Source of the DNA: Hormiphora californensis
Lineage: Eukaryota; Animalia; Ctenophora
NCBI GenBank assembly: GCA_020137815.1
Contig: CM035350.1
Span: forward strand, 9,548,001-9,612,000
Length of the DNA stretch: 64,000 nucleotides
Direction: 5' to 3'
Part shown: piece by piece, positions 2,539-52,666 of the stretch
Position numbering within the stretch: position 1 is the first letter of the stretch
Layout: the number at the start of each line of letters is the position of its first letter
Notes under the pieces: generated by a model
Databases searched by the model: none
Told to the model about the DNA's origin: nothing
The model's input: only the letters and a program-made list of their open reading frames with translations
Translations under genes and position numbers: made by a program

Positions 2539-4407
2539 ATGGTCAAAAGTACAACCTTACTTGTCTGGTAAGTAACACATTCTGATCATATCTTCTCTGA
2601 AGAGATGTCCTCTCCACCCCCCCCCCCCCGCCCGCCCGAAAGGATTTTGTTTGTTTTGCTCACACTGACCCTCCCACCAGGATTTTGTTAACGCTAGTTA
2701 GTATCCCGACGCTTCTCGTAGTGGAGAGTACGAATATAATACCAACATTGGAACAGTATAACGCCATCCAATCGGCCTCAAAAACATCTGGTTTCCTTCA
2801 ACTTGAGTGTTTATCGCGTTTGCAAAGGAAAAACGAAAAGTTTGATTACGAAAAACACGGCCCTTGTAAAATAGAAATTGAGGACGAAGAACTCATGGAG
2901 GTGAGATATTAGAAATAATGTCATGTGAGATATATTATATTGAGATCAATGTCAATAGTGCTTGGCATATTGATATCAATTCTGCAGTATAGTGCTTGGC
3001 ATACGTGCAGCTGTAGGCCCCCTGTAGCACATGCCAACTGTTGTAGTGCTGTAACTCTTCTCCCATATTATTATAGCTGACTACTGGTAAATAAGGGTTT
3101 CACTATAAATTATTCTTTATTTCAGATTCTCATGATAGACAGGGAGGAAGCAGGGAACAGTAGGAAGCAACGAGTAGTATGTAGGTGTAGGAAAGCAAAA
3201 GCAAGGCGGAAATCTGATAAGAAGAGAGCAATGCTTGATGGATTCGTGAACCCTCCTTCAACAAAGAAAAAATTAAGTAAGTTATTTGATCATTGTCAGA
3301 CATAACCAATGGTTATGCCTGACAATAATAAAATATTAACCATTTTTGTTTATCAGTTTTCTGTTGTTTCCCCAAAGTTATTATTATTATATTACACACT
3401 TTTCTTTCAGGAGCTAAATTAAAAGTCTGCAAGAGATGGCTGTGTTACACGTTTACCAATGGCCGGAAAGAGTTTAACGAAGAAGAGGCTTTTGTCATGG
3501 CTGAGGCAACCTATATCGAAGTAATTAATTTATTAGTATTTTCACCAATTGTATTATGTATAGAAATTTCACAGGATACTTATATTAGCCCTTAGTTGCC
3601 GTTTCTTTTTTCCTGAACGCTTTAGGAGGCTCCAAAACATTTGCAATTCGTGTATTAAAATTTGGTGTTTCTCAATACCACGTACTGCACATATCAGTCA
3701 TTATCACCTATCCCTTTCTCTCTCTAGTCCCTGGGCTTAGCTCTATAAACTAGATGCAGCAAAGCTTGTTTGTTTTACAGACATGATCGGCGGGGCCTTT
3801 ATCCTCTTATATTTATCAGGTAGCTGGCAACAACACAGTCTGCATGCGCTCTGTAATATCAGACAGTTTCGGTAGACTACCAGCCACAATAATATACGGG
3901 ATATTGTCTGTCGGGGCCAGCTGCGTTTCAAATTATTAGTTAACCGCTCTAAATTTTAAGCTGCTCGGTCCCCTGCAGGGTTTTAGGTAGAATTTATAAA
4001 ATATACTGATTCCCTTCAATAAAGTCGTAATTTCCTGACTAAAATTTCCGTCATAATGTCGTATACAAATTAAATTATGTCCTCAGCATATCGATATTTT
4101 TTAGGGAAAGGACAGTATTGAAGGGACATCTCTTAGTAACCTTACAAACAACGCTAGAACTTTCTTCTTATCTCAAATCGTCCCATCACGTTACGATTAA
4201 AGTTCCACAATTGAGTTTTTAACAACTAATCTCCCTCCAGGCACTGTCTGGCGTCTGGGAAGTGTGCGTGGATACACCGGACCCTGATGTCCCACCCTGT
4301 ACACTACTCTATAGTGGTGTTCAAATGAGACCTCTCCCGGAGGAGGCGCCTTTCAGAGTCACCCGATTCCGGCAAAACTCCCCACCAGCACCGACCCTTC
4401 ACGGGGG
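2539..4407 (+). CDS. Uncharacterised secreted protein (5 exons); last exon interrupted by a retroelement
   Basis: Exons 2539-2567, 2681-2900, 3126-3276, 3411-3520 and 4241-4407 have GT-AG boundaries and compatible phases. N-terminus MVKSTTLLVWILLTLVSIPTLLVVES is signal-peptide-like. No family recognised. Confidence 0.7.
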
Positions 4408-6051
4408 TCACTTATTCACTTCTCACATATCACTTATTCACTTCTCACATATCACTTTCACTTCTCACATATCACTTATTCACTTCTCACATATCACTTA
4501 TCACTTCTCACATATCACTTTCACTTCTCACATATCACTTATCACTTCTCACATATCACTTATTCACTTCTCACATATCACTTATCACTTCTCACATATC
4601 ACTTCACTTCTCACATATCACTTTTCACTTCTCACATATCACTTATCAGTTTCGTTTGAAAAGCTCGCTTCTGATAATTTTTTGATCTTCCACCGTTGTA
4701 CACGCGAACGAGCATGGCCTCCAAGTTGGATCGTGCCTTCACTATCTGGCGGAATGGCGGCCCGGGCAACAGAGCTACTACTGCTGATTACAGCCGGCTG
4801 GAGATGTCCATCGTATCTACCTTGAGACGAGTCGGTGGGTACCCTGACCCTAACAAGGAAGGTGGCACATTCGACCTGAACAAGCTGACCACCACCTATC
4901 TCTCAACTCTAGATACCAACAAGAAAGTTAGTTTTATTTCTGATATGGCGGGCTTACTTTGGTATCGTGCTCTCCCTCTCAGTCGGTTAGCTAAGAAGAA
5001 CTTGTCAGATGACATGCGATCGGTTCAGAACAGTTCTGTGTGTAGCGATGAATCAAAAGAGAAGGTAGAGAAGCTTATGGAGCATCTGGACCACACCCGA
5101 GACCGTCTTGACAGTGCTACAGATCTGTTATTAGAACGTGATTCCAAGATCATTGAACTGCAATCAGAGATCAGTGCCCTGAAAGACTCGATCATATCCA
5201 TGAAAGATACCATGCTAGAGAAGAGCGTGGCCGCTGTACAGACAGTTGTAAAGGACGAGATTCAGAATTACTCTGCTGTTCTCCAGACAGCTGCTACTGC
5301 TGTGAACCAGACCTGTGTATCTGCCCTTGCTCCCAGCAAACTACGAACAGCAATTGCCAGCGCTTCAGTTGATCGTAGTAACAACCTGATGGTGTACGGT
5401 CTGCCAGAGAGTGACCAGCTAAGCGACAGTACTTTAGTCAAGGATCTATTTGAACATTTGTCTGAAGCGCCAGTGTTATCAGAGGTGGCACGACTTGGTA
5501 GGAGAGGTGGTGAGGGAGTGCGGCCAGTGCGGGTGGTGCTGAGGAACAGAGAGATTGCTAGGACTATTTTGGGGAAATCAGCGATGCTGAAGGACTCTGA
5601 CCAGTATCAGTCAGTGTTTATTGCACCGGACAGATCAGTAGAAGAGAGAGCAGAGAGAAAAGAATTAGTTACTAAACTGAGAGAGAGAAGAGAAAATGAA
5701 CCTGATAAAGTGTGGAGGATTAGAAGAGGCTATATTGTAGAGAGTGAGACGTGAGAAGTGTTGCGAGAGATTAGAGAGATAGAGATTAATGAGTTAACTT
5801 TTTGAGATACGGATTTATTTTATGTTTTATAATTTTTTATGGTTTTCAGTTTTGTAAAGACATAGTGCGGACCAGGGTGGGGTAGCAGGTTCAAAGCACA
5901 CAAAAGACCTAACCGTCTTCGTGCTAACGACCCTGTTACGCCACCCTGAATCCTCACTCAGTTTGGTCTGTGTGGCTGGTTTGCTTCCTATTATAATATG
6001 ATTATTTCGGCGCAATGCCACTGCCAGCGGCAGTTTTGATTGATTGATTGA
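4408..6051 (+). mobile_element. ORF1-only non-autonomous non-LTR retroelement, copy A
   Basis: 5' TCACTTCTCACATA tandem array, single ORF, ~300-nt 3' UTR and (TTGA)4 tail; homologous end-to-end to 9730-11224. Confidence 0.85.
4714..5754 (+). CDS. LINE ORF1p-like protein (coiled coil + RRM + CTD), 346 aa
   Basis: ATG at 4714; heptad region followed by the motifs RSNNLMVYGLPE, RPVRVVL and VFIAPDRSVEERAERKELV typical of L1/CR1/L2-type ORF1 proteins. Confidence 0.85.
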   Translation: MASKLDRAFTIWRNGGPGNRATTADYSRLEMSIVSTLRRVGGYPDPNKEGGTFDLNKLTTTYLSTLDTNKKVSFISDMAGLLWYRALPLSRLAKKNLSDDMRSVQNSSVCSDESKEKVEKLMEHLDHTRDRLDSATDLLLERDSKIIELQSEISALKDSIISMKDTMLEKSVAAVQTVVKDEIQNYSAVLQTAATAVNQTCVSALAPSKLRTAIASASVDRSNNLMVYGLPESDQLSDSTLVKDLFEHLSEAPVLSEVARLGRRGGEGVRPVRVVLRNREIARTILGKSAMLKDSDQYQSVFIAPDRSVEERAERKELVTKLRERRENEPDKVWRIRRGYIVESET

Positions 6052-6054
6052 ATA

Positions 6055-6148
6055 TAGGTCTCCCCACCAGCACCCACCCTTCACGGGGGATGATAGAGGT
6101 AGGTCTCCCCACCAGCACCCACCCTTCACGGGGGATGATAGAGGTAGG
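6055..6148 (+). repeat. 45-bp tandem duplication of the exon end and a GAG|GTAGG donor-like site
   Basis: Two units CTCCCCACCAGCACCCACCCTTCACGGGGGATGATAGAGGTAGG; the first 30 nt match 4378-4407 with one mismatch. Confidence 0.9.
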
Positions 6149-6793
6149 CCTCGAGGTTGTTATTTTCTAACCCTTCTTTACACTTGTAAACAGGGTCGAG
6201 CAAGTCTAGTTCGAGGAGCTGTTTTTTGAACGTTTGATCTTATCTGGTTTGATTTCCGACAGTAAATAACAACACTAATTTACAGGCTGATTGGCCATGA
6301 CAGAGCCTATAAATGCAAAACTCCAAGAGAAGAAAGACAAGAAGAGACACCATAAGACGATGCCATGTGAATGAGCAGTCAAAAAGCTGATACCGAGCCG
6401 CTGAAATATAGGTGAAGAATCATAGGAAATTTATTGAAGATGGACATTGTCAGATGTTTGTTTGTCCCGCGGTGTCCACTCGTTATTACAAACTATGTGT
6501 CGCTGCGAGTTTTTATAATTTATTGCGTATTGTGCTGTAACCTATATATATAATGTGTATGGTGCTATTATTATAGTAGTATTATACCCCATAATGGTAC
6601 ACGATACACTTGTAGTTGTGTTGATACACTGTCAGAGCATTGGCCTGACCCTATCCTCATTTCGAGAACCGCGGTCAGAGCATTGGCCTGACAGTTGAAA
6701 CATGTGTTTTCATTCAACTCGATTTAGGAGATCATTGTGAGACAATTGCCAAGTTATCTAATTGCCAACTGTACAGATTTGTAGTAAATTCGC

Positions 6794-7017
6794 CCAGCCC
6801 CATTGTGTGTGGTGTGGCGACCCCAATTTGACAGTGCGCTCAGATCGGGTCGGCGGCGCCAGACAGCCCCATGTGTGCTGTATGGCGACCCCAATTTGAC
6901 AGTGCGCTCAGATCAGGTCGGCGGTGCCAGACAGCCCCATGTGTGTGGTATGGCGACCCCAATTTGACAGTGCGCTCAGATCGGGTCGGCGGCGCCAGAC
7001 AGCCCATGTGTGGTGTG
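6794..7017. repeat. ~68-bp tandem repeat, 3 copies
   Basis: TGGCGACCCCAATTTGACAGTGCGCTCAGATC(G/A)GGTCGGCGG recurs three times. Confidence 0.9.
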
Positions 7018-8158
7018 GATTTTATTGATATATACCTCTCTCTATATACGATGTTCAGAAATTATCCTGTTAAACTAAAACTGAACTTGTTTTACTTTTA
7101 AAATGAACCTGCGAAAAAGCATGATGATGTATCATTGTCAATCACAATGAAAGTTTGTGATCAGCCCGCAATGCGGGCCCCACATTGCATTTTTGGTCAA
7201 ACCCATCAAAGCATCTTCATTCCTCGTTTTGTGCCAACTAAAATCGTATACAATTCTACAACCCAGAAGAAAGAAAATAAAGATTAGCATGGCTGATGTG
7301 GTAATTTCAAGTATATAAATTGTTTTGAATTCCTTCCAAAGAAAAGACCCTAATATGACTCTTTCAATTCCGGTCCAAAATCTTGTAATCTTGTAATATT
7401 CTTCACACAGATACTGCACAGGTGTCAGTTCCTGACAGAGCCCCCCTCTCCCTGGATACAAGTGGTAACTGGTATCCAAAATGAATATCAGGATGTAACA
7501 TGTTATTCTGGTTCTTTAACATACCCGGATGTTCTTCTTCAGCCGGGAGGAGGCTCTGGAATTAATGATAAACCGGGACACGTGGATCGGTTATTGCATC
7601 AACACTCGGCCTCTCCGGCCGCCTTAGGTCAAAAAAGTGGTTCTTGTTATTTTTAATTTTTAATTTTGGTAAGTTCCTCTCTGGAACTTGTTTTCGCGTT
7701 CATTCTGAGTTCAAGAGATTTGGTGCGCTCTTGATTGTGGTTCCTTCTGGGTGTGGTTCGCTCTTGGATATGGTCTCTTCTGGATGTGGTTCGCTCTGGG
7801 ATATGGTCTCTTTTGGATGTGGTTCGCTCTTGGAGGCTCTTGGACTTTATTATGGTTCACTATCCAAAATTAAATTGCCATTCTGAGTTCTGACGGGCTG
7901 TGACGCTCTGCTTTTGCTTCTAAAACTTAAACCACCAAAAACGGGAAACATTTCTGATTTCGAAAAAAAAAACAGATTCTAAAATTCACAAATTCAAATA
8001 AGATATTTTGAAATAATGTACAGAATATGATTGTAACGCGCGAATTTTTAAAATTAAGCGATGCAAATACGCGCGCACGAACTGAACTGACCGGCGCGGT
8101 CGGATCTCGACTTTTTCAAACTTTTAAATTTTCAAATTTTTGGAAATTTCAAACTCCG

Positions 8159-8376
8159 TAAAGTCGGATTTTTTGAAACTGTCACCCCCCTGGGTATTTT
8201 CAAATTTCGTAAATGACCATAAATCCGGTTCCTGACGAGATAGAGACTTGAAATTTGGAGGTTACGAAGATCTTGCTAAGTTCTTCCGAACCTCAAGTCT
8301 CTATCTTATCAGGAACCGGAGATATGGCAAATTTTGTTATTTCAGGGGGGTGACAGTTTCAAAAAATCCGACTTTA
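8159..8376. mobile_element. MITE with TIR (TA)AAGTCGGATTTTTTGAAACTGTCACCCC; relatives at 12097-12224 and 50024-50175
   Basis: Long terminal inverted repeats flanked by TA; the same TIR is seen at three loci. Confidence 0.85.
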
Positions 8377-8411
8377 GTCCGTAATCACTTTTTTGAGGCA
8401 TTTGCAGCGTT

Positions 8412-11400
8412 ATGGGACACGTAAGGGAACTCCGAAAGGAAAATGAAGAAGACACTCAAAATGTAAGTTATTTAATTACTAATTTTGGCCGGTTTATTAC
8501 CGAAAACAGACTTATAAAGTTACCAAAATTTTAGCGTGGCGCTCTGGGAGAGACTCTTAAATCGCTTCTTTTCGTTCTTGGTACGGCGATTCTAGCTACT
8601 ATTGCTGTTCGAAACTCTGTGAACCCGTAAGTAAGGCCTATATGCCCTAAAAATTCCTTTAGTTACCGACCACCTCCTTGCCACTATCTCCATAACGGTA
8701 CGGTTCCTGATTTTTGAGGTCACATCGATATTTTGCTTTCAGACTCCTTATTCATGTTTACTGTCTAGGTACATTCACAAAATATGGGGTGCCTCTCATG
8801 ACTTTTGGGGCGAGCTCTGGAACAGGATTTACGATTTGTTCGGTCGCAACGATCACCTCGTCCACCATCTCGGATCAGCTCTCTCATATTCATCATGCTT
8901 CGTGGTGTTCAATGCTGTTTTCTTGTTATGCGACGTCACAAGGAAACCAACCTGGCTCCTGAAATACAAAGTTCAGGAAGGCAAAAACGAACCGGTAAGG
9001 AACAACTTGACTGGTCAAAGCAGTTGAGAAGAAGTGGGGAGTATATGGGGATGAGGAGAGTCCTACCATCTGTATTTAATTTAGTGGACCAGAAGAAGTT
9101 GTGGAGCTGTATCAGAACTTCTGCGTTTAATTTATTAGTAGTCAGTCCAGTGGTTACACTTGTTCTCTACCCTATGGCTCTGGCCCTGGGTTCTTACCAC
9201 AAGGGCCAGTTACCAACATTCGAACGACTGCTTGTGGAATTTGTTGTTTTTACTTTGGTTGAAGAAGTGATGTTTTATTACAGCCACAGGTAACTTGTTT
9301 AGGTGTTCCATGGGAACCGGGCAGTTATTATTAACTATGGTTGCGCCTAGTTCGAACTTCACGAATTAAAATACCCCATAGGGATTAGGGGTTGATGTAC
9401 CCGTCCAAGGTAACTCCAATAACCATTATGATTTGTCTCTACAGGTTGCTCCACTCGCCCCGGTTCTATGCCAAGTACCACAAGAAGCATCACGAATGGA
9501 CTGCCCCCATTGGTATTACTTCTATCTACTGCACACCACTAGAAATGGTCTGCTCCAATATATTGCCTTCCATTATGGGACCTATGATAATGCAGTCACA
9601 CATCTTCGTTACATGGCTCTGGTTAGTTACACAGTTACACAGCTATAACACAGTTACCAGTTACACAGTTACACAGTTGTCATGAAAACAATACACAGTT
9701 ACACAGCTATAACACAGTTACCACAGTTATCACTTCTCACATATCACTTATCACTTCTCACATATCACTTTCACTTCTCACATATCACTTATCAGTATCG
9801 TTTGAAAAAGCTCGCTCCTGATAGTTGTTTGATCTTGCACCGTTGTACACAAGTACGTACATGGCCATGAATTCCAAGTTGGATCGTGCCTTCACTACCT
9901 GGCAGCTGGGGTGCCCGGGTGACCGTGCTATCTCTGCTGATTACAGTCGGCTGGAGTCGTCAATTATATCTACATTGAGACGAGTCGCTGGGTACCCTGA
10001 CCCTAACAAGGAAGGTGGCACGTTTGACCCGAACAAGCTGACCACCACCTATCTCTCAACTCTGGATACCAACAAGAAGGTCAAGTTTATTTCTGATATG
10101 GCGGGTTTGCTTTGGTATCGTGCTCTCCCTCTCAGTCGGTTAGCTAAGAAGAACTTGTTATCAGATGATACGAGGTCTCACAACAGTTCTGTGTGCAGCA
10201 ATGAATCGAAAGAAAAGGTAGAGAAGCTCATGGAGCATCTTGACCACACCCGTGACCGTCTTGATAGTGCTACAGCTGTATTACTAGAACGTGATTCCAA
10301 GGTCATTGAACTGCAATCAGAGATCAGTGCCTTGAAAGACTCTATCATATCCATGAAGGACACCATGCTAGAGAAGAGTGTGACTGCTGTACAGACAGTT
10401 GTTAAAGACGAGATCCAGAACTACTCTGCTGTTCTCCAGACAGCTGCTACTGCTGTGAACCAGACCTGTGTATCTGCCCTTGCTCCCAGCAAACTCCGAA
10501 CAGCAATTGCCAGTGCTTCAGTTGACCGTAGCAGTAACCTAATTGTGTATGGCTTGTGTGAGGATGAGAGGAGCAGTGACAGTGACAAGGTGAAGGAGCT
10601 GTTCGAGCATCTTGTGGAAGCACCAGTTCTTTCGAAGGTTGAGAGGCTGGGGAGGAGCAGGGAGGAGCGTGCACGGCCGGTGAAAGTGGTTTTGAGGAGC
10701 AGTGAGAGTGTCAGGGCTCTCCTGGGCAAGGCATCACGGCTGAAAGAGTCAGAAACTTTCCGTTCAGTGTATGTGGCTCCTGATAGAACTTTAGAGGAGA
10801 GAGTAGAGAGGAGATTATTAGTAGCTAACTTGAGAGAGAGGAGAGAATCAGAGCCAGAGAAAGTGTGGGTTATTAGACAGGGATCGGTTGTGGGAACTGC
10901 GAAAACTGAGAGTGATTCTGATGTGTGAGAAGTCAGAGTTGAGAGAGTGAGAAATTAGAGATTTTAACATTCTTCATCCTTCTGCCCGTATATTCACAAT
11001 TCACATCCTATCGTTTTTGAAACCGTTTCTTGTAAGGACATGGTGAGGGCCAGGGTGGGGTAGCGGGGTCAACGCACACAAAAGTCCTTACCCGACTTCG
11101 TGCAATTGATCTCGTTACGCCACTCTGAACCCTCACCCAGTTTGGTCCGTGTGGTTCAGTTTTCATGATATTATATGTTTAATTGCGGCTCAGTGCCACT
11201 ACCCACCGTGGTAGCTTTGATTGACCAGTTACACAGTTACACAGTTGTCAGTTACGCAGTTACAGTTAGTAGTTACACAGTTACATAGCTACACAGTTGC
11301 ATGCATCGTCCCCGGTTTTACTTCTCACTCGCCCTAGGTATGCTCTGGTTATATTCTCTACAACGCTAGCTCACGGAGGTTATCATGTACCCTTCCTCTT

Positions 11401-11884
11401 CTCCCCTGAAGCACATGACTACCACCACAAAACGTGAGATACCAAATGAGATAACTGTCGCCCCATTTTAATATCGTTCTAACTTTCTCCGTGGTTTGAT
11501 AAAGCTGGCACATATTTATCGCATGACATTTAGAATTAGGAACCGGACGTTTTATCCAAACCGGTCCAAACCGGTTCGAACAGTGAAATACTCAACCGAA
11601 AAACGCGAAACTAGGAAACATGTCGGTTCAGTTATGACCGGTTTGGACCGGTTTGGATAAAACGCCCGGTTCCTATTTCAAATCTAATTACCCCTGACAT
11701 CAGGTTTAATTGTTGGTTTGGCACCGTTGGTATTCTTGATAAACTTCACAAAACTGATAAACCTTTCTGTGGAAGTATCCATGAAGTCCGACACTATGTT
11801 TCCTTCAGCCTGACCCCTGTTAAGGAGCTTCATCCTGACCCCAAGGATCGTCTTGCTACTGCCTCGTGCACCAAAGTAGAGTGA
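8412..11884 (+). CDS. FAXDC2: Fatty acid hydroxylase domain-containing protein 2 (sterol desaturase family)
   Basis: 7 exons (8412-8462, 8535-8626, 8770-8994, ~9084-9289, 9445-9621, 11338-11433, 11704-11884). His boxes FYYSHRLLH, YHKKHHEWTAP and HDYHH, plus KYKVQEGKNEPVD. One acceptor needs a 1-nt correction. Confidence 0.9.
9730..11224 (+). mobile_element. ORF1-only non-autonomous non-LTR retroelement, copy B, in a FAXDC2 intron
   Basis: Same 5' repeat, ORF, 3' structure and TTGATTGA end as copy A; embedded in an intronic (CAGTTACA)n tract. Confidence 0.85.
9861..10928 (+). CDS. LINE ORF1p-like protein, 355 aa
   Basis: ATG at 9861; paralog of 4714-5754; motifs NLIVYGL, RPVKVVL, VYVAPDRTLEERVERR. 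Confidence 0.85.
   Translation: MAMNSKLDRAFTTWQLGCPGDRAISADYSRLESSIISTLRRVAGYPDPNKEGGTFDPNKLTTTYLSTLDTNKKVKFISDMAGLLWYRALPLSRLAKKNLLSDDTRSHNSSVCSNESKEKVEKLMEHLDHTRDRLDSATAVLLERDSKVIELQSEISALKDSIISMKDTMLEKSVTAVQTVVKDEIQNYSAVLQTAATAVNQTCVSALAPSKLRTAIASASVDRSSNLIVYGLCEDERSSDSDKVKELFEHLVEAPVLSKVERLGRSREERARPVKVVLRSSESVRALLGKASRLKESETFRSVYVAPDRTLEERVERRLLVANLRERRESEPEKVWVIRQGSVVGTAKTESDSDV
11537..11675. mobile_element. Small hAT-like MITE in a FAXDC2 intron
   Basis: TIR TAGGAACCGG(A/G)CGTTTTATCCAAACCGGTCCAAACCGGT; degenerate 8-bp flanks TTTAGAAT/TTTCAAAT. Confidence 0.8.
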
Positions 11885-23706: not shown

Positions 23707-26700
23707 GACAGACAGACAGAACCTCAGTAGTGTACGTACTGTGCGATGTAGATGTAAATGTAGAAGCTCTCGTAGTATTGGGAAGGGAAGACTGAGGCTG
23801 TAAATGTGTCCATTAGGATTACAAACATACTCGGCAAGTAAACCCTGTGTGGGAGATTAACATATTGGATGGTTACCTTCTAGAGTTTACTGGCTGGCGG
23901 CACGGACCCGATCTGAACGAGAATCAAAACGGGGTCTGGCAGATCTAACAAAACATTTAATGAGACTCAGTTAGAGTACTTCTGGGACCTACCAGATGTT
24001 AAGACCAAATATCATGAGATAGTAGGCGCCCTCTCTCGACACATCCGCATACATCTTCTTATAGTTTGTATGGGCACTTTGTAGGGTGAGAAGGGATATC
24101 AGGACCAGTACGGTCATTATATGAGCCTGACAGATAAACACCCCTGCTTTTCGTGATCCAGAGAGATCTGAAACAAGTAAACAACCAATCAGAACTCGTT
24201 ATTTAGGTCACGTGACTGGTTATCAGCCAATCAGGGACCAGTAATATTTCCTGATTCGGTCACCCCTGCTTTTCGTGATCCAGAGAGATCTGGAGAGATC
24301 AGGGGGTTAAGGAAATAAGATATCTGGGTAGAATACATGAAAGAACACATTGAAATTTCTAGGTATGCCTCCCAACCTATTTCTGATAAAGTGCCCGCTT
24401 CCACTGCGTCTGCTTCGTGTGGCGCTGTTTTGATGACGCACCATCCCAGTTTAGAGTCAAAACACAGGGAGCTTCTATCTGACTCGTGGAGAACGTCCGT
24501 CTTGCTACTTTCATAAAACTTAGTGTACAATATATCAACTGGAAATGGGGGATAGTTAGAACTAGGTGTACAATATATCAACTGGAAATGGGGGATGGTT
24601 AGAACTTGGTGTACAATATATCAACTGGAAATGGGGGATAGTTAGAACTAGGTGTACAATATATCAACTGGAAATGGGGGATAGTAAGAACTAGGTGTAC
24701 AATATATCAACTGGAAATGGGGGATAGTTAGAACTTGGTGTACAATATATCAACTGGAAATGGGGGATGGTTAGAACTAGGTGTACAATATATCAACTGG
24801 AAATGGGGGATGGTTAGAACTTGGTGTACAATATATCAACTGGAAATGGGGGGATGGTTAGAACTTGGTGTACAATATATCAACTGGAAAATGGGGGATG
24901 GTTAGAACTAGGTGTACAATATATCAACTGGAAATGGGGGATGGGGGTTTTGAAATTGGGGGGTACAATAATCAAAAAAATGGAAAAGGGGGGGAAATTT
25001 GAACTTGGGGTCCAAATTCAAAAGGAAATGGGGGTGGTTTTTAAATTTGGGGTTTCCAAAATACCAAAGGGGGAAAAGGGGGGTGGTTTTGAACTTGGTT
25101 TTTACCCAAAATATCAACGGAAAAAGGGGGGGGTTAGAACTTGGTGTAAAAATTATCAAATGGAAATGGGGGGGGGTTTTGAAAACTTTGGGGACCCAAA
25201 ATATCAACGGAAAAAAGGGGATGGTTTGAACTTGGGGGTTCCCAAAATTCAAATGGAAAAGGGGGGGTGGTTAGTAGAAATTGGGTTTTTACAATATATC
25301 AACTGGAAATGGGGGGGGGTGGTTAGAACTGGTGTCCAATTACAAATGGAAAAGGGGGGGTGTTTGAAATGGTTTTACCCTATATCAAATGGAAAGGGGG
25401 GAATTAGTTTGGAAAATTGGTGTAAATATATAAAATGGAAATGGGGGATGGTTTAGAATGGGGCAAAATTTTCAAGGGGAAAAGGGGGATAGTTTTGAAA
25501 TTGGTTTTAAAAATATATCAACTGGGAAAAGGGGGGGGTTAGAACTTGGTGTCCCAAAATATCAAGGAAAAAAGGGGGAATTTTTTGAAACCCAGGTTTT
25601 TTACAATAATCAAATGGAAAAAGGGGGAGGGGTTGAACCTTTGGGGACAAATATCAAATGGAAAGGGGGGTATTAGAATTGGTTTACCAAAATTTTCAAT
25701 GGAAAGGGGGATGGTTTAAAAACTTTGGGACAATAACAAAATGGAAAAGGGGGGGGGTTTTGAACTTGGTGTACCCAAAATACAACGGAAAGGGGGGGTA
25801 GTTAGAACTTGGTGTACAATATATTTTAAATGGAAAAGGGGGATGGTTTTTGAACTAGAGGGCAGTTTGGGGTTACCGTATATCAACTGGGGAAAGGGAA
25901 AAGGGGGAAATTGGGGGGGGGGGGGGGGGGCCAAAACCATTTTTTGTATGTTTGACGGAAAAAAAAAAGATTGCCACAAAAAAAAAAAAATACAAAAAAA
26001 AAAACAAAAAAGTACAAAAAAAAACAAAAAAATACAAAAAAAAATTAAAAAAAAGTTTTTAAGGGATTTACCAATTTTTGTTCGAAAATTTTTTCTGTTT
26101 TCCACCTATTTTACGCAAATTTTGCACAAAATATATACATATTTTACAAAAATGTAAGGGGATGCCCCAAAAACGCGGAGGGAAAAAAATTTTTCCCAAT
26201 CGCAATTTTTTACCCCGGGAAAAAAAGGAGGTCGGTTTGAACTTGACCGAATTTTGGGCAGGTCAATTTAGGGGAGGGCTGATTTAGGGGAGGTCTGAAT
26301 ACTAAGGGATGTGAAGGTTTATTCGGGTAAGGGTTTTTAGCGGAGGAGACGATAAGAGATAGGAAAGTGATTGGGGAAGAAAAGGAGGGTTCCCCCAAAA
26401 GATCCCTTTTTTTGGCTTTTTTTGGGGGACATTGTTCCGGGAAATTAGAGCCCCATACAATGGGAAAACTTTCTGAGTGGTGATAGGTATATGGGTGGAA
26501 AACGAAAAGAAACTTTTCCCCCCAATTTGTATCTCCTCTCTCTAATGATTGGCTTCCCCCAATAGGGGCTATAATCTCGTTTTCGTTCACACAGCTTTAA
26601 AAAGCTCCCCCGGGGCCCCGAATAAAATTTCCCGGGTTTTGTAAATTTGGGCCCGCCCTAAAAGACCTGCCCTAAAAACGACGGGGGCCAAAAACCCGAC

Positions 26701-29700
26701 CCCACCCAAATTCAGAATGCCCCCAATTCGCCCTGCCCTAAATTCAAATCGGGGTTCTCCCCAACCCGGAAAACCGGACCTAATGCAGGGAGGCGAGTGG
26801 GGAAGGGGCCCCTAACCAAACCCCGCCGACCCAAAAAATTTCAATATTTTCTTTTTTTTAAAAAGTGTAGGGAAATCTTTGCTTTTTAAAGGGATTTTGG
26901 TTTTTGCGCTGACAGGTAGAGTTGGGGGCTGATTTTCAAAAATAATACAAGATTTAATAATTATGAAGTTTGGGGGGAAATTGCCCATTTTTGCTGGGTT
27001 TTCTTTTCTCAAAGATTTGTTTTTCGGTGAATAAAAATTTTTTTTTCCATAGAAAAGGGGGCTTTTTAGAGGGAAGGTTCTACCCTGGAAAAAATTTTCA
27101 GTAGAAAAAACGGGGGGCCCCAGAGGGGGAAAAGGGCCCCCGGGAGCTTCGCCGATCGGGACTGGGAAAAGATCGGGGAAGGGTAGAGGGGGGAAGGGGG
27201 GGAGGGGGGGAGCGCAAAGGGAAAGGGGATCTCCTTTCTTCCGTCTCTCTTTTTTTCCCCCCCTAAAAGAAAAAAAGAGGGGAAAAAAAGAAAAGAAAGA
27301 AAAAAGAGGACCCTTTGCGAAAAGAGAGGGGGGGGTAAAAATAATAAAATAATATTTAAAGCTTGTATACCCCCAATACCCAGGGTACAGTCACAAAGGT
27401 AGGGTTTTTCCCAAAGTTGCTATCTTTAAACCCAAAGGCTTATATAGGGTGGAAAGCGATAAAAAACTTTCCCCGAAAACGTATTTTTAAACCCTCGTCT
27501 AAACCCCCTCCTGATTGGTCCCCGAAAATGTTTTCCCGGGGAGGGGGTTAGGGATGGGGAAGGAAAAAACCGATTTGAAAAAAATTTACCGAAAAGGTCT
27601 CATATCGTCTAACACCCTTTATTGGCTTTCCCCCCAATCCTGTTCATATCTTTATCGTCTCCCACCCCTAAAAAAGTTCCCCCCCAATCGCATTCACATG
27701 CTTTGACTCAGACCTGCCCTAAAAAAGACCCCCCCGCCCTAAATTTAGGGCCTTTCCCCAAATTCAGACCGGCCCCCAAAAACAGACCTGCCCTTTAAAA
27801 TTTTGGTCGAAGGTTTACCGACCTGCCCGAAAACTTTCTCGAATCGCAATTTCTTACCGAGAAAACTTTCTCGAATCGTAATTTCGAACCAAGAAATTTT
27901 TCTCGAATCGAAATTTGTAAGCTAGAAAATTTTCCCGAATCGTAATTTCTTACCGAGAAAATTTTCTCGAATCGTAATTTGGACCAAGAAATTTTTCTCG
28001 AATCGAAATTTGTAAGCGAGAAAATTTTCCCGAATCGTTAATTTCTTACCGAGAAAATTTTCTCGAATCGTAATTTCGAACCAAGAAATTTTTCTTGAAT
28101 CGACATTTCTAAGCGAGAAAATTTTTTCCGAATCGTAATTCTTACGAGAAAATTTTCTCGAATCGTAATTCGAACCAAGAAAATTTTTCTCGAATCGACA
28201 TTTCTAAGCGAGAAAAATTTTTCGAATCGCAATTTCTTACCGAGAAAATTTTCTCGAATCGTAATTTGGAACCAAGAAAATTTTTCTCGAATCGACATTT
28301 CTAAGCGAGAAAATTTTTCCGAATCGCAATTTCTTACCGAGAGAATTTTCTCGAATCGTAATTTCGAACCAAGAAAATTTTCTCGAATCGACATTTCAAA
28401 GCGAGAAAATTTTTCCAAATCGCAATTTCTAAGCGAGAGAAATTTTCCCGAATCGCAATTTCTTACCGAAAAATTTTTCTTGAATCGATATTTCTAGGAG
28501 AGAAAATTTTTCGAATCACAATTTCTTAGCGAAAATTTTTCTCTTATCGCAATTTTTTAGCGAGAAAGTTTTCTCGAATCGCAATTTCTTAGGGAGAAAG
28601 TTATCTCTAATGACAATTTCTTACCGAGAAAGTTTCTCGAATCATAACTTCTAACCGAGAAAATTTTCTCGAATCGTTATCTGAATCAATCATGTTTGCT
28701 TTTCCAAATTTCAAGAACATGTACTTTTTCATATATGTATTACATGTATAATGTAACACTTTTAGGGAATAAAATGCGTGACAATGGAACTAAAACGTTC
28801 CTAGGTGGTACATGGGCAAAAAAGGAACCCGTCTATGTATTATTTACACGTTTATCAGGCACCCATATACCCTTAAATATTTTGTATTTTTTTGTATTTT
28901 TTTGTATTTTTTGTACGGAAAAAAACAAGAATTTTGGATATTTTTTTGTATGGCCCGTACAAAAACATACAAAAAAATACAAAAAAAAATAGGTTGGAAC
29001 CCCCCCGGATAGTTAGAACTAGGTGTACAATATATCAACTGGAAATGGGGGATAGTTAGAACTAGGTGTACAATATATCAACTGGAAATGGGGGATGGTT
29101 AGAACTTGGTGTACAATATATCAACTGGAAATGGGGGATGGTTAGAACTTGGTGTACAATATATCAACTGGAAATGGGGGATGGTTAGAACTAGGTGTAC
29201 AATATATCAACTGGAAATGGGGATGGTTTAGAACTTGGTGTTACAATATATCAAACTGGAAATGGGGGATGGTTAGAACTTGGTGTACAATATATCAACT
29301 GGAAATGGGGGATAGTTAGAACTTAGGTGATACAATATATCAACTGGAAATGGGGGATGGTTAGAACTTGGTTGTACAATATATCCAACTGGAAATGGGG
29401 GATGGTTAGAATAGGTGTACAATATATCAAATGGAAAATGGGGGATGGTTAGAACTAGGTGTACAATATATCAATGGAAATGGGGGATGGTTAGAAACTT
29501 GGTGTACAATATATCAATGGAAAGGGGGATAGTTAGAACTAGGTGTACAATTATCAACTGGAAATGGGGATGATTAGAACCTTGTGTACAATATATCAAC
29601 TGGAAATGGGGGGGATAGTTAGAACTTGGTGTACCAATATATCAACTGGAAATGGGGGATGGTTAGAACTTGGTGTACAATATATCAACTGGAAATGGGG

Positions 29701-31523
29701 GATGGTTAGAACTTGGTGTACAATATATCAATGGCAATGGGGGATGGTTAGAACTTGGTGACAATATATCAACTGGAAATGGGGATGGTTAGAACTAGGT
29801 GGTACAATATATCAACTGGAAATGGGGGATGGTTAGAACTTGGTGTACAAGATATCAACTGGAAATGGGGGATGGTTAGAACTTGGTGTACAATATATCA
29901 ACTGGAAATGGGGGATGGTTAGAACTAGGTGTACAATATATCAACTGGAAATGGGGGATGGTTAGAACTTGGTGTACAATATATCAACTGGAAATGGGGG
30001 ATGGTTAGAACTTGGTGTACAATATATCAACTGGAAATGGGGGATGGTTAGAACTTGGTGTACAATATATCAACTGGAAATGGGGGATGGTTAGAACTAG
30101 GTGTACAAGATATCAACTGGAAATGGGGGATAGTTAGAACTTGGTGTACAATATATCAACTGGAAATGGGGGATGGTTAGAACTAGGTGTACAATATATC
30201 AACTGGAAATGGGGGATGGTTAGAACTTGGTGTACAATATATCAACTGGAAATGGGGGATGGTTAGAACTTGGTGTACAATATATCAACTGGAAATGGGG
30301 GATGGTTAGAACTTGGTGTACAATATATCAACTGGAAATGGGGGATGGTTAGAACTTGGTGTACAATATATCAACTGGAAATGGGGGATAGTTAGAACTT
30401 GGTGTACAATATATCACTGGAAATGGGGGATAGTTAGAACTTGGTGTACAATATATCAACTGGAAATGGGGGATAGTTAGAACTTGGTGTACAATATATC
30501 AACTGGAAATGGGGGATGGATAGAACTAGGGACAGTGTATCAACTGGAAATGGGGGATGGTTAGAACTTGGTGTACAATATATCAACTGGAAATGGGGGA
30601 TGGTTAGAACTTGGTGTACAATATATCAACTGGAAATGGGGGATGGTTAGAACTAGGTGTACAATATATCAACTGGAAATGGGGGATGGTTAGAACTTGG
30701 TGTACAATATATCAACTGGAAATGGGGGATGGTTAGAACTTGGTGTACAATATATCAACTGGAAATGGGGGATGGTTAGAACTTGGTGTACAATATATCA
30801 ACTGGAAATGGGGGATGGTTAGAACTTGGTGTACAATATATCAACTGGAAATGGGGGATGGTTAGAACTTGGTGTACAATATATCAACTGGAAATGGGGG
30901 ATGGTTAGAACTAGAGACATGGCGAAATGCAGTGTGAGCCGCACGAGAGACAGTGTGAGAGAAACATATTCGTCCAGGACGCGAACCAGTTCACTTACAG
31001 GTCATGTATGATATTGGAATTAGTATTGAAAACAGGAATGTGTTCTTCAGTCGTCTCCTCCAGCAATCGGCCGCCTCCATCTTTCTAAGTACCATGATTC
31101 TGTCATATGCAGCCAGGGAGAGGCTCAGAAGGGATGACTGCACTAGGAAGAGGTTGATGAAGTAGCTGGCATAACAAAACTTGCCCGAGTAGTTGACCGA
31201 TTGACACAACCGGACCATCGCTGGGATTACTATCATACTCACTGAAAATTGGAAGTAGTATTATGCTAACGACACACACACGCACACACACAAATCATAT
31301 TTCATTGACGATGTTGCGAGATAAATATAAAGGAAAGAGATTTACCTTTCAGTATGTCCGTAAGAGCGAACAGGGAGCTGTAATAAGTGACAACCCAATC
31401 AATGTGCCTCCTGAATCTCCTTAGCACATAGACCAGGGCTGCGTTAGATGCTATGGCACACAATAGCAGCATCACCAAGAGGGCCACCGTACCCGGGTGA
31501 GTCACACCACTCTTGTTTTTCAT
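23081..31523 (-). CDS. Rhodopsin-like class A GPCR, multi-exon
   Basis: TM1 [12 protein letters not shown]2 LFALTDIL (exon 31523-31345); TM3 LSLAAYDRI (exon ~31243-31000); exon 24538-24377; TM5/6 exon from 24167; TM7 [14 protein letters not shown]; stop at 23081. Some exons near 23.7-23.95 kb need frameshift correction. Confidence 0.75.
23444..23719. repeat. (GACA)n tetranucleotide microsatellite, intronic
   Basis: Direct reading. Confidence 0.97.
24171..24260 (-). mobile_element. Truncated short repeat/MITE flanked by a 32-bp direct duplication
   Basis: Reverse-complement homolog of 39122-39208; flanks 24139-24170 and 24261-24292 are identical. Confidence 0.9.
25913..29006. mobile_element. 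G/C-ended foldback-like element inserted in the satellite
   Basis: Left end poly-G plus (AAAAAATAC)n; right end (GTATTTTTT)n..GGTTGGAACCCCCCC. The left half is low quality, so boundaries are approximate. Confidence 0.55.
27831..28678. repeat. ~31-32-bp tandem repeat (TCGAATCG[C/T]AATTTCTTACCGAGAAAATTTTC) with a trimeric higher-order pattern
   Basis: Direct periodicity. Confidence 0.92.
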
Positions 31524-46062: not shown

Positions 46063-47143
46063 CACCCATGCCCTATATCAGCTAAAGTAGAGATCAAAAT
46101 GTTAAATGAGCCATGATGACCTTAGGTAATATATTCCCTAGCAATATTTGGTTAAAAGGGCACGAAGGGTTTAAATTGAAAATTCAATGCAACCAACGAA
46201 TTGTTCACCAATGTGCCCCTTATGGTCTACACAGATAGCTTGTCGGTACGCCCATGTCATGCAATTTCCCAAGAAGGGCGGCCTTGTTGAGCCCTAATTT
46301 GCTAGTCGCTCTAGGTCTTCCACTAAGTAATACTTCACTGGGTCTGCCTGTCAGAGTGGGTAGTGTGTTCCATAGTCGAGTCGCTCTACAGATGAACAAG
46401 TTTTGGTATTTACTACTTCCTAACAACTGACTTTTGCACTCTGAGTGACAGGTTGGGCTTCCCGGGTTATCATATTGGGCTTCAGCAAATTTTGAAATTA
46501 TGGGGACCTAAGACGGACCTGCAGCCGCTGTTTGGAACCATAGATGCTCAAAATGAGCAAAAAGCTTTAAAATCCCAATTTGTTTTGGCAAACGCTGCTG
46601 GCCCACGTGCAGGGATAAGACAGCGCTTTTCAACAATTTGTTTAGACAAATTTCTTTTTTTGGGTCATTTTGCAGGGCGCCATAGGGATCCCTAAAAAAG
46701 TTCAGTATTTACACAGTGTTTACACAGTCTTTACACAGTCGTTACACCCAGAGCGGCGGGGCGCGATTATAATCTGGGTGCCTTGCAGCCTGTTTACAGG
46801 TGCGCGCTGCCAAAAGAGTATACTTAGACCGACTTTTTTCAAACGGCTATAGCCATGGAACCACATGGCCGATTCGAGTAAACTAAACAGTATCAGTTAG
46901 AGAATCGATAGCCCTAACCGATAACTCCAAACCAAACTCTAACCAGACCCTAACGGATAGCCCTAACCCGTCGTGCGCGCCAAAACTACGAATTGTTAGC
47001 AATGAAAGGCACCCAGATTTTAACGTTTTCCAGAGCGGCGCGTGCTGCGTTTCGCGGCTTTTTCTAAGAAAATATTGGATTGTGTGCTGCACAATTGAGT
47101 AAATTGAGCGCTGCGGCGAAAAAAGTTTCCGAAAACGCTGCAA

Positions 47144-48227
47144 ATAAGGAACCATAATAAAGTTCAAGAGCCTCCAAGAGCACCCAAGAGCGCACCCGAT
47201 CGAAGAGAGACCACACCTGAGAGCGCACCACACCCAAAAGAGACCACATCCAAGAGCGCACCACCTCCAGAAGACACCACTTCAAGAGCGCACCACATCA
47301 AAGAGAGCTCCCCATCCAGAAGATACCACGCGCAGGGGACACCACGCGCAGAAGAGACCAGCGCGGCGTTGTATTTGCGCGTGCGGTCTCTTCTGCGCGT
47401 GGTGTCCCCTGCGCGCGGTATCTTCTGGATGGGGAGCTCTTTTTGATGTGGTGCGCTCTTGGAGTGGTGTCTTTTGGAGGTGGGGGCACAAAACACCAGT
47501 GACCACGCCTTGATCTGCAAGGTTGGAGGCTTTGATATGTGGAGACATGACCACCTTCGGGATACCTTAGCCGATATCCTTCGGTATGCGGGATTCAAAC
47601 CCGTTAACACTGAACAGCCAATGTTGCCCTGTGACGGATTCAACCTGCCAATCAGTGCAAATATCAAAGCTGAAGCACGAATGGACATAGTCTGTCGTGG
47701 CTTATGGTCTGACATGCAGACCAGTTTCATGGATGTACGGGTTTTCCATCCTAATGCCCCATCCTACCTGAAGATGCCCATCACGAACCTGTATAAACAG
47801 CACCAAAATCAGAAGAAACTTGCCTATATGCGAAGGGTGCAAGAAGTGGAGCAGGGTTCCTTCACGCCCCTCGTATTCTCCACGTCGGGAGGTTTTGCCG
47901 GAGAAGTAGGGAAGGTTTTGGAGCGAGCGGCCAGGAAGATCTGTGACAGGCACAAGGAGAGTTACGCTGAAACCATGTCCTTCATCCGAGAAAAGACACG
48001 ATTCAGTTTGTTAAGATCAACTCTTGTTGCGCTTCGGGGAACCAAGAGAAGGGTTGTCCCAGTCAGTGTGGAAGATGTAGACTTTCGAGACAAGTGAGCA
48101 GAGAGAGGGAGTATGAGAGTATGACGGTGTGTGGGTAATTTATTATAATTTATTGTTTTTTTTTTTCTTTTGGAGGTGGTACGCTCTTGGATGGGGTGCG
48201 CTCATGAACTTTATTATGGTTCCTTAT
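47144..48227. mobile_element. MITE with TIR ATAAGGAACCATAATAAAGTTCA, host of the CRE fragment; related fragment at ~7720-7863
   Basis: Terminal inverted repeats and internal mirrored AGAGCGCACCA repeats. Confidence 0.8.
47484..48165 (+). mobile_element. 5'-truncated CRE-clade non-LTR retrotransposon (zinc finger + restriction-like endonuclease)
   Basis: ORF to 48097: DHALICKVGG..RHDHLRD..RMDI..DVRVFHPNAPSY..FTPLVFSTSGG; T-rich tail; 14-bp TSD TCTTTTGGAGGTGG (47470-47483 and 48166-48179). Confidence 0.85.
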
Positions 48228-48716
48228 CGAGTGCGAAAGACGCAGTCTTTACACCCAGAGCGGTGCGGGCGCCGTTATATTTTACGATCTGGGTGTTTGA
48301 GGGCCTGTTTACAGGTGCGTGCTGCCAAAAAAGTTGATTCACTAATACGGCTCTAACCGCCGAACCACTCAACCGTTTTGGCTAATTCAAAGCTTATCTG
48401 GTAGGGAATGTCAAGGCCTAACCCCAACCCAAACCCCAACCCTAACCCTAACCCTACTTTAGCCCTAACCGAATACCTCTGATTTTCTCTATCGATCCTA
48501 ACATTAAGCGTAAGTTTAGAACCTTGGTCAGTGAAGTACTAGAGAGTTGTACGTTAGAGGACAATCTGTTAACTTAGCTATACTTTTTATCCAATAGGAA
48601 GGCTTGTAATAGGGTTGTAACTTTTAATTATCTTTTTTACTTTTAATCTGTAACTTTCTGTAATTGCATTTTTGACAAGGAGTGTGTGTGTTTGTGTATG
48701 TGTGTGTTTGTGTGTG

Positions 48717-50177: not shown

Positions 50178-51728
50178 GGGCCACGGATTGTTGGTCATGG
50201 TTAGCGAGGTGGTGCGTCAAAACGGTGATAGTTGTGAGAATAAAAATTATGGGAGCACTCTGGATCAATTCCTTGGTAACTTTTTCCATAATTTTTTGTC
50301 AAAAATTCGAAAATTCATTTTTCATTCCTTCATTCATTTCTCGTTCATTCATGATGTGAGCATCCTAATTTTCCATCATTATGCTATTTTTCTTTGGCTT
50401 GAATTTATCTTTCCAATGAGCACCATGAAAATGAAATTGAAGCACCAGGTCACTCAGCAGTTGAGAAAATGTTCATGCATGATTTTGGCTCTTTTTGCGA
50501 CTTTCAAACAGATGTATCACGGCTACCTTTCGTTCAATCTTCTTAAAACTTTGGGAAAACATTGGATAAGCAAAGATCTTTGCTCACAAGAAAAATCAAG
50601 GCCGAAGATCAAAGTTCATTTTTCATTTTTGTTAGTTCATTCCGTTCATTCAGGAACCAACATCCCTAAAGTGATGAAAAGGTTTGGGTTTTGTTTGGCC
50701 CATGTCCTGCAATGACAGAGAGGTGTAATAGCGTGTTTCCGGGCTAGCTTGTGGGTGTCCATGTGATCATGATGATATCTGACACCTTTTCTGAGCCATA
50801 ATTAAGGGATTTTCTCAAACTCAAGCATGTAACTTGGTTTTTCTGCGATTAGTACCGTGCAGCAATGTTATGAGATCTCATAAAACCTCAAAAATGATGA
50901 TTAGCTCAATGAAATGAGTTGATTTATGATGTAATTGTTCGTTTCGTTCAATTTGACATCGGTTTTAATCTTTTCAATCATAAATCAACTCATTTCATTG
51001 AGCTAATCATCAGTTGAGGTGTTATGAGATCTCATAACATTGCTGCACGGTACTAATCGCAGAAAAACCAAGTTACATGCTTGAATTTGAGAAAATCCCT
51101 TAATTATGGCTCAGAAAAGGTGTCAGATATCATCATGATCACATGGACACCCACAAGCTAGCCCGGAAACACGCTATTACACCTCTCTGTCATTGCAGGA
51201 CATGGGCCAAACAAAACCCAAACCTTTTCATCACTTTAGGGATGTTGGTTCCTGAATGAACGGAATGAACTAACAAAAATGAAAAATGATCTTTGGCCTT
51301 GATTTTTCTTGTGAGGAAAGATCTTTGCTTATCCAATGTTTTCCCAAAGTTTTAAGAAGATTGAACGAAAGGTAGCCGTGATACATCTGTTTGAAAGTCG
51401 CAAAAAGAGCCAAAATCATGCATGAACATTTTCTCAACTGCTGAGTGACCTGGTGCTTCAATTTCATTTTCATGGTGCTCATTGGAAAGATAAATTCAAG
51501 CCAAAGAAAAATAGCATAATGATGGAAAATTAGGATGCTCACATCATGAATGAACGAGAAATGAATGAAGGAATGAAAAATGAATTTTCGAATTTTTGAC
51601 AAAAAATTATGGAAAAAGTTACCAAGGAATTGATCCAGAGTGCTCCCATAATTTTTATTCTCACAACTATCACCGTTTTGACGCACCACCTCGCTAACCA
51701 TGACCAACAATCCGTGGCCCACCTTGTA
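50178..51728. mobile_element. ~1.55-kb palindromic (foldback) Tc1/mariner-type non-autonomous element 1
   Basis: ~750-bp arms that are near-identical inverted repeats; right end CACCTTG-TA; left end clipped next to a MITE. Confidence 0.85.
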
Positions 51729-52666
51729 TATGTTATTATTAATGCGCACCCCCGGTTCGCATTATTAAAAATCGGACTTTACTGCGTGGCTCCGCTGTTG
51801 CAGCGTTTTGGAAAACCTTTTTGCCGCCGCGCGGCATTCAAATCAGTCAAGTGCCTTTTTTTATTTTCGTCCCTGGAGGCTTGAAAAGCGCTGCCTTATC
51901 CCGCGCTGCGGCGTTTGCCAACTGGATCTGGAGGCTGGACCTTGGAATGCCCTGGCCGCTGCAGCCCTGCAAGGGGCCTGCAGCGTATTCCAACCCTGGA
52001 CCCCGCTTGTGGGGGGTTTGACCCCCACTCCCCCCTAAGTCCTGACCCGGGCTGGCACCCAAGGCCCCTGGACGCACAGACCGTACACCCTGTGCGGCCA
52101 CGGGCCAACGTTAAAATCTGGAATTTGCACTTACGGTTTTTAGAGTTAGTGCTAAAGTAGGATTCGGGTTAGGGTTATTAGAGTAATTTTAGGGTGCTTT
52201 TTGGCAGCGTGCACCTGTAAACAGGCAGATCGTAACGCCACCCAGATGACAGATCGTAACGGCGCTCTTTTTTACTGTGAAGTCATGGCTCACCTAAGGA
52301 CGAGGTCAAGCTACTCCCTAGACCTTGCTATTTTTAATTTTTTTCAACTGTTCACCCCGGCCCTCCCCCTGGAATTGTTTTGCGTGCTTATCATACGCCC
52401 GAGTTTGGGGTGGACAGTTGAAGAAATAGACTTTGTCAATTGTCACTGCACCACATGGTTTAGACCGCACCGCCCTGGTTTTCGCAATGATTATTTGTGT
52501 GATATCCCTGGTCCCTGTATAAAATAGAGTCTTAATTCCAAGTGCATTGGACAACGAATTTCAAGACCTTTCAAACGCCCCGGGATGAAATTTCTACCTC
52601 ACCAGGAACTGGAGTTATTAGTAGAAACGTCTAAAAATGGGGAGGGGGAGCTGGAGATAATATATA

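Follow-up and report, generated by a model that had tools for sequence, protein, structure and literature searches.

A multi-copy, ORF1-only non-LTR retroelement family in Hormiphora californensis, likely copied by the ORF2 protein of another LINE

Can a non-LTR (long terminal repeat) retroelement persist without coding for a reverse transcriptase (RT), and if so, whose enzyme copies it? The question is raised by a 64,000-nt stretch of Hormiphora californensis DNA (hereafter, the window), in which two related elements, copy 1 and copy 2, lie on the + strand. A preliminary description of this DNA had noted that the two share one architecture and have no room for a second open reading frame (ORF2), and both points hold. 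Each copy consists of a 5' array of a 21-nt unit, a single intact ORF (ORF1), a 3' untranslated region (UTR) and a TTGA tail. We consider it about 80% probable that they represent a multi-copy, ORF1-only non-LTR family without RT, whose ORF1 protein (ORF1p) is L1-like by predicted fold and which is likely copied by the ORF2 protein (ORF2p) of another long interspersed nuclear element (LINE). The parts of the two copies are as follows.

4408-4648 (+): 5' array of copy 1, the 21-nt 5' terminal unit repeated 11.5 times head-to-tail, with the motif CTTATC at its end (4642-4647)
4714-5754 (+): ORF1 of copy 1, 346 aa (ORF call, predicted fold)
5852-5984 (+): long 3' UTR hairpin of copy 1, with an apical 4x1 internal loop (folding against shuffles, covariation)
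6020-6034 (+): terminal stem-loop of copy 1, 5 bp, loop CAGCG (motif comparison)
6036-6051 (+): (TTGA)4 tail of copy 1
9727-9794 (+): 5' array of copy 2, ~3 units, with CTTATC at 9788-9793
9861-10928 (+): ORF1 of copy 2, 355 aa, an apparent chimera with its junction near 10530
11030-11163 (+): long 3' UTR hairpin of copy 2 (folding against shuffles, covariation)
11199-11224 (+): terminal stem-loop of copy 2 (loop CACCGT) plus the (TTGA)2 tail, the tail itself at 11217-11224

The copies align with 78.4% identity across 1516 nt, and their 3' UTRs measure 297 nt (copy 1) and 296 nt (copy 2). Since the longest sense stop-free frame in the UTRs of either copy reaches only 47 codons, ORF2 is absent from both. 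Neither self-comparison nor an RNA-model search revealed a third copy in the 64-kb window.

Is the lack of ORF2 peculiar to these two copies? A scan of metagenome contigs produced 139 pattern matches, 28 of which were confirmed as related loci (27-86% identity). At least 180 nt are available downstream in 24 of them and, as L014 is the same site as L002, these amount to 23 distinct informative sites. No endonuclease or RT was detected by Pfam in any of the 71 sense frames of at least 42 aa downstream of ORF1 (L014 excluded); an unrelated LINE in L018, picked up by the same search, served as a positive control. The longest frame starting near the stop codon does not exceed 86 aa in 23 of the 24 informative loci, and at 16 of the 23 distinct sites a tail, or an end common to several loci, lies 165-390 nt beyond the stop. 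Tails called by script are TTGA (L002, L003), TGA (L004), ATTTC (L015, L019), GTTTC (L020, L024) and TAT (L026); those judged by eye are CAA-type in L008-L010 and TGAA in L016. Also by eye, L006/L007 and L022/L028 have a common end beyond which the flanks diverge. In sequencing runs of organism A, variant contigs with up to 35 differences connect the ORF1 stop with the UTR, and contigs from organism B likewise extend beyond the stop to the UTR. The short layout extends over about ten families with ORF1p identities of mostly 25-45%. An ORF2 in most copies, the outcome that the preliminary description had held to be fatal to its proposal, is seen in no related locus, L021 (considered below) being a candidate exception.

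The LINE in L018 (3312-8510, - strand) is itself intact. It lies antisense in the C-terminus of an ORF1-family element, has a single ORF of 1732 aa with Cys-rich fingers, endonuclease, RT and RNase H, and is presumably Ingi-like.

It might be argued that each family is a recent, independent internal deletion of its own two-ORF parent LINE, as in HAL1, and that a low ratio of nonsynonymous to synonymous substitution rates (dN/dS) mostly reflects parental history. Non-autonomous copies can outnumber their parents, so that parents could be missed among 23 sites. The 3' ends do differ between ORF1 families, as different parents would give, and L021 may be a two-ORF relative; moreover, HAL1s arose several times independently (PMC5753468, in excerpt). 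However, endonuclease or RT is present at 0 of 23 sites with at most one candidate, placing the one-sided 95% upper bound on ORF2-bearing copies at ~13-19%. Furthermore, TTGA-family copies with 57-72% identical C-terminal parts of ORF1 keep a similar UTR length and the same hairpin, and the internal-loop motif and terminal loop of the UTR recur in families ~30-35% alike. Such repeated deletion is in our view unlikely. The ORF2-less state is likely old, because it is shared by copies whose RNA recognition motif (RRM) halves are near synonymous saturation.

What, then, does the single ORF encode? Neither ORF gives a curated Pfam match. AlphaFold2 models of ORF1p have a mean pLDDT (predicted local distance difference test) of 79-80 and a pTM (predicted template modelling score) of 0.33-0.38. 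In the model of copy 1, an N-terminal helical region (aa 7-104) is followed by a long helix/coiled coil (112-205, ~94 residues), an RRM (221-306) and then the C-terminal domain (CTD, 307-346) formed by a helix and two strands (309-344). A coiled coil, a single RRM and a CTD, in the order predicted here, make up the type II (L1-type) ORF1p arrangement. The first eleven Foldseek matches of the model are all human L1 ORF1p (best E 1.8e-4). VIA-align ranks first 2w7a, the central domain of L1 ORF1p (Z 10.1, root mean square deviation (rmsd) 2.5, 86 aligned), with other RRMs scoring within about 1 Z of it; 2yko, a chain of the L1 ORF1p trimer, covers model residues 165-346 (Z 9.1, rmsd 10.2). Baculovirus FP25K also matches the model (E 3e-4). 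The earlier impression that the motifs fit an L1/CR1/L2-type ORF1p is thus borne out by the predicted-fold comparison, which supports reading the ORF as a type II ORF1p. Sequence matches of ORF1p in PDB were dismissed as coiled-coil noise only. The N-terminal ~100 aa have no match in ESM Atlas; they are conserved in the close family, and their profile matches those of distant families only marginally (hhalign probability 1.4%).

The named close homologues are gene models of Pleurobrachia bachei, namely P0009 (85% identity, 77% of the query), P0029 and P0010. Eukaryotes make up the three best ESM Atlas clusters, with Ctenophora the commonest among few records, and 9,513 cluster representatives fit the ORF1 profile with E no higher than 0.001. 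No relative was confirmed when viral contigs and genome contigs were scanned at the protein level. Longer, fused forms were also searched for, with a single result, the Pleurobrachia gene model P0054, in which RRM-CTD is linked to a PF01755 domain; as evidence for fusion this is weak. P0054 is likely a mis-annotated intronic copy, its RRM-CTD having been spliced by the gene caller into a glycosyltransferase-family (PF01755) model.

ORF1 evolves under purifying selection. Between copies 1 and 2, dN/dS is 0.21 for the whole ORF (Fisher p 9e-23), 0.15 in codons 1-222 (dS 0.35) and 0.16 in codons 223-346 (dS 1.9); in four other diverged pairs it is 0.18-0.34, and a fifth pair is identical. The values near 1 that the preliminary description had regarded as contradicting it were therefore not obtained. 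It had also stated that differences in the coiled-coil region are mostly synonymous, and codons 110-222 indeed hold 23 synonymous and 5 non-synonymous differences (dN/dS 0.05). What it missed is how unevenly the copies differ: DNA identity is 89% in codons 1-222 and 64% in codons 223-346, changing abruptly at codon 222, where the RRM begins (maximum chi-square 97, 0/1000 permutations). At the protein level, copy 2 is 91% identical to copy 1 in the N-half and 60% in the C-half. We built separate trees of the two halves for 17 proteins, fragmentary hits excluded. The N-half of copy 2 groups with copy 1's group, whereas its C-half pairs with P0018 (99/97). Forcing copy 2 into copy 1's group was rejected for the C-half (p-AU, approximately unbiased test, 0.027) but not for the N-half (0.158). 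Judged by these sequences, copy 2 is chimeric, its two parts meeting where the coiled coil gives way to the RRM. P0006 displays a discordance like that of copy 2, but may be an assembly chimera. By the break at codon 222 and the discordant half-trees, subfamilies thus swap RRM-CTD modules while staying intact.

Which signals might recruit a foreign RT? The 3' regions of both copies fold much better than shuffles (z -4.1 for 5840-6051 in copy 1 and z -4.9 for 11020-11224 in copy 2). Across four TTGA-family sequences, 94.7% of cells in the long hairpin are paired, compared with 34-44% in slid controls, and 6 of 38 pairs are changed on both sides. The terminal stem-loop stands before the tail and includes a G-C/A-U swap; a 3' stem-loop followed by microsatellite repeats, as present here, is a feature of the CR1/L2 group. 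Among 18 non-redundant UTRs, the 4x1 internal-loop motif occurs in seven and the CA[CG]CG(T) terminal loop in six, compared with ~0.25 occurrences (maximum 2) in shuffles, both motifs having been defined post hoc. In zebrafish L2, the 3' stem-loop is a binding site for ORF2p, which reads the loop (PMC4176376, in excerpt), and by this analogy the terminal stem-loop is likely an RT recognition signal. Rfam matches were generic hairpins below gathering scores, and no ribozyme was among them. An RNA model of the long hairpin (R1) did not detect it in distant families (best L016, E 1.6), and the R1 search for a shared 3' part returned family members only. One further R1 match in the window (47303-47429) was rejected as a palindrome that scores on both strands.

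At the 5' side, CTTATC lies 50-120 nt upstream of the ATG in 10 of 15 scored loci against a background of 0.037 per locus, this motif also being post hoc. Of the five loci without it, three (L011, L015, L017) may have been scored from a wrong or rearranged start or 5' region, since the sisters L018 and L019 have CTTATC. L002 has a single 21-nt unit, copy 2 has ~3 and copy 1 has 11.5; the array is the element's own terminal unit, expanded.

Type II ORF1 is known in elements of the L1, CR1, L2 and R1 kinds and passes from one lineage to another (PMC4120745, in excerpt); therefore, it cannot settle the LINE clade. Our assignment to CR1/L2 is an inference from ORF1 type and 3' anatomy, not from an RT tree. 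The RT donor might instead be some other microsatellite-tailed LINE (RTE/Rex1-type), possibly a single-ORF LINE that receives ORF1p in trans. There is no RT by which to place the element, the mobility of type II ORF1 leaves room for such a donor, at least two classes of 3' end exist among relatives, and a single-ORF L2, ZfL2-2, is described in the excerpted text of PMC4176376. Yet a terminal stem-loop, a repeat tail and a type II ORF1 together fit the L2/CR1 group best, as far as the excerpts of PMC4176376 and PMC4120745 go, and no result points to a benefit for the donor. This alternative seems to us distinctly unlikely.

We return to an ORF1-only element, likely of the HAL1/HeT-A/Ag-Sponge kind by analogy, that is probably mobilised in trans by a CR1/L2-type LINE. 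Its cycle would begin with Pol II transcription from an internal 5' promoter, suggested by the conserved CTTATC motif and initiator-like TCAGTT ends. ORF1p would trimerise and coat its own RNA in cis, which would keep the ORF under selection. ORF2p of a stringent CR1/L2-group LINE would then bind the terminal stem-loop, with the TTGA repeats as the place where it primes reverse transcription. RRM-CTD modules could be exchanged by template switching among RNAs packaged together.

Did such elements also spread through copying? L003 is 5'-truncated, and L005, L006 and L007 are 99-100% identical with different flanks; L008/L009 and L015/L019 likewise stand at different sites. The truncation of L003 and the near identity of L005-L007 agree with target-primed reverse transcription and with recent activity, and by sequence the element is dispersed and multi-copy, with a fixed 3' end and 5' truncation. 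Depth over the element in DNA runs is far above that of unique flanks, which is not a copy number. In run X5 depth is higher over the hairpin; because summed contig depths are not copy numbers, this was not used as evidence of a partner. Two features define the insertion sites in the window.

6055-6152: 45-bp tandem repeat at the insertion site of copy 1, with a near-identical 30-nt piece at 4378-4407
9622-11337 (+): probable intron (GT..AG) of a fatty-acid-hydroxylase-family host gene, with copy 2 within it in sense orientation

Copy 1 appears to sit inside the 45-bp repeat, because the near-identical 30-nt piece lies on its other side. Copy 2 is surrounded by a (CAGTTACA)n tract and is likely intronic; the exon at 9446-9622 matches PF04116 with E 8e-7, slightly below the curated cut-off. 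One contig from a DNA run joins 9636 to 11270, which hints at a possible empty site for copy 2, the join lying within the microsatellite with 29 letters on its short side. These data also bear on the idea of a domesticated, L1TD1-like ORF1-derived host gene family or its processed copies, with which intact ORFs under purifying selection and their presence in Pleurobrachia gene models would agree. However, copies are scattered and their flanks differ, 5' truncation occurs and some copies (L002, L007) are broken; the tails are microsatellites rather than poly(A), one insertion is intronic and there is a possible empty site. All of this speaks against domestication, which we regard as highly improbable.

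Several observations weigh against an ORF1-only family copied by another LINE. Flank inspection revealed no clean target-site duplication at copy 1 or copy 2. Pfam and PDB sequence searches gave no sequence-level match to PF02994 or L1 ORF1p, so the link to L1 ORF1p is by predicted fold only, at the low pTM given above. The covariation count comes from only four sequences, with the structure taken from the same alignment. A partner LINE sharing the 3' end was not found, as 3' UTR patterns had 0 matches in viral and metagenome contigs. Four of the 28 loci are too short downstream to judge, Pfam is weak for fragments of 42-90 aa, and 7 of 23 sites have no clear 3' end. Finally, L021 has a 226-aa frame (1706-2383), Cys-rich at first and then coiled coil, that begins 275 nt past ORF1 and is open to the contig end. 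We read the Cys-rich part as PHD-like, though the frame has no Pfam match; L2 elements with a probable PHD at the start of ORF2 are described (PMC4120745, in excerpt). L021 may accordingly be an autonomous relative, and its frame may be the start of an ORF2, a second ORF1 or another element. A search for a longer homologue of the frame found none.

How far back might this way of life reach? L004 groups with the TTGA family (88/96, unstarred) and yet has a AAGCGGGAT-type end as in L015, L020 and L024. Two end classes thus apparently cut across the ORF1 tree, a discordance that depends on this single unstarred node, most of the tree being unresolved. A tentative and somewhat doubtful extension is an ancient, probably ctenophore-wide ORF1-only superfamily without a surviving two-ORF parent, swapping 3' tails to parasitise different LINE RTs. 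Its persistence would resemble that of a short interspersed nuclear element while being protein-coding, with a conserved 5' promoter motif and UTR RNA motif and with RRM-CTD exchange. Searches within the open-access literature turned up no earlier account of the family in ctenophores.

The window and the runs contain further features. The fatty-acid-hydroxylase gene region (8400-9600) has a ~10% divergent second version in the DNA runs, either a very divergent haplotype or a paralogue. In run X2, contig depth is ~200-fold over 4575-6654 (the element of copy 1 and its right flank) and 5-30 elsewhere; run X4 differs, and library unevenness is the probable cause. Short high-copy or palindromic repeats lie between and beside the copies (6620-7012, 8161-8376, 11534-11677); they include an array of a 68-bp unit, with many loose ends in run contigs, and hairpins resembling miniature inverted-repeat transposable elements. 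A palindromic foldback-like repeat, followed by a 186-aa ORF (47537-48097), occupies 47140-48230, and a related piece lies at 7717-7858 on the opposite strand. We take this ORF, which has no Pfam match, to resemble the C-terminal end, with the restriction-like endonuclease, of a CRE-type retrotransposon. A 1.5-kb segment occurs in direct and inverted copies with ~79% identity at 50199-54166 and is possibly another mobile element. Long satellite arrays with 43-bp and 32-bp units cover 24517-30912 and 59076-64000, the second extending to the window end.

If a deep and diverse set of such elements exists in an early-branching animal, having ORF1 alone would be a stable long-term strategy and not a rare by-product. 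ORF1-only elements separate selection on ORF1p from selection on ORF2p, so that the contribution of ORF1p in cis, with RT in trans, becomes testable. Natural chimeras and distinct tails are ready-made swaps for mapping RNA choice by ORF1p and ORF2p. In practical terms, copies of the element get annotated as host genes or exons (P0054, P0029).

Among known systems, HAL1 has a poly(A) tail and target-site duplications, and HeT-A is telomere-specific. The Hormiphora element has instead a stem-loop and (TTGA)n end with no clear adjacent duplication, does not resemble L1 ORF1p at the sequence level, and is dispersed, with one copy in a likely intron. Like mammalian HAL1, which is L1-derived, it has only ORF1p, of the same coiled-coil/RRM/CTD fold class by prediction (PMC5753468, in excerpt). 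The Jockey-derived HeT-A of Drosophila is likewise a long-lived ORF1-only element, whose protein probably acts together with those of a partner (PMC5786205, in excerpt); in contrast to the type II ORF1 here, Jockey ORF1 is type I, with RRM and CCHC (PMC4120745, in excerpt). Stringent L2 LINEs (ZfL2-1, ZfL2-2, UnaL2) share the 3' stem-loop followed by short repeats, recognised there by ORF2p, and ZfL2-2 also has 5' UTR repeat units (both from the excerpt of PMC4176376). Unlike our element, they encode endonuclease-RT, and the 3' ends are likened by anatomy, not by sequence identity. The CR1-derived Ag-Sponge of Anopheles has one ORF1p and no ORF2 as well, and its CR1/L2-group affinity and dependence on an autonomous LINE (PMC5786205) are likely shared; it differs in host lineage, and here families ~25-45% alike in ORF1p carry several tail types. 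In the same excerpt HeT-A, HAL1 and Ag-Sponge, each of a different lineage, are cited as ORF1-only LINEs with proteins that probably form multimers with those of the partner. The ORF1-only kind is therefore already known, whereas the breadth across families and the tail classes discordant with the ORF1 tree would go beyond the known cases.

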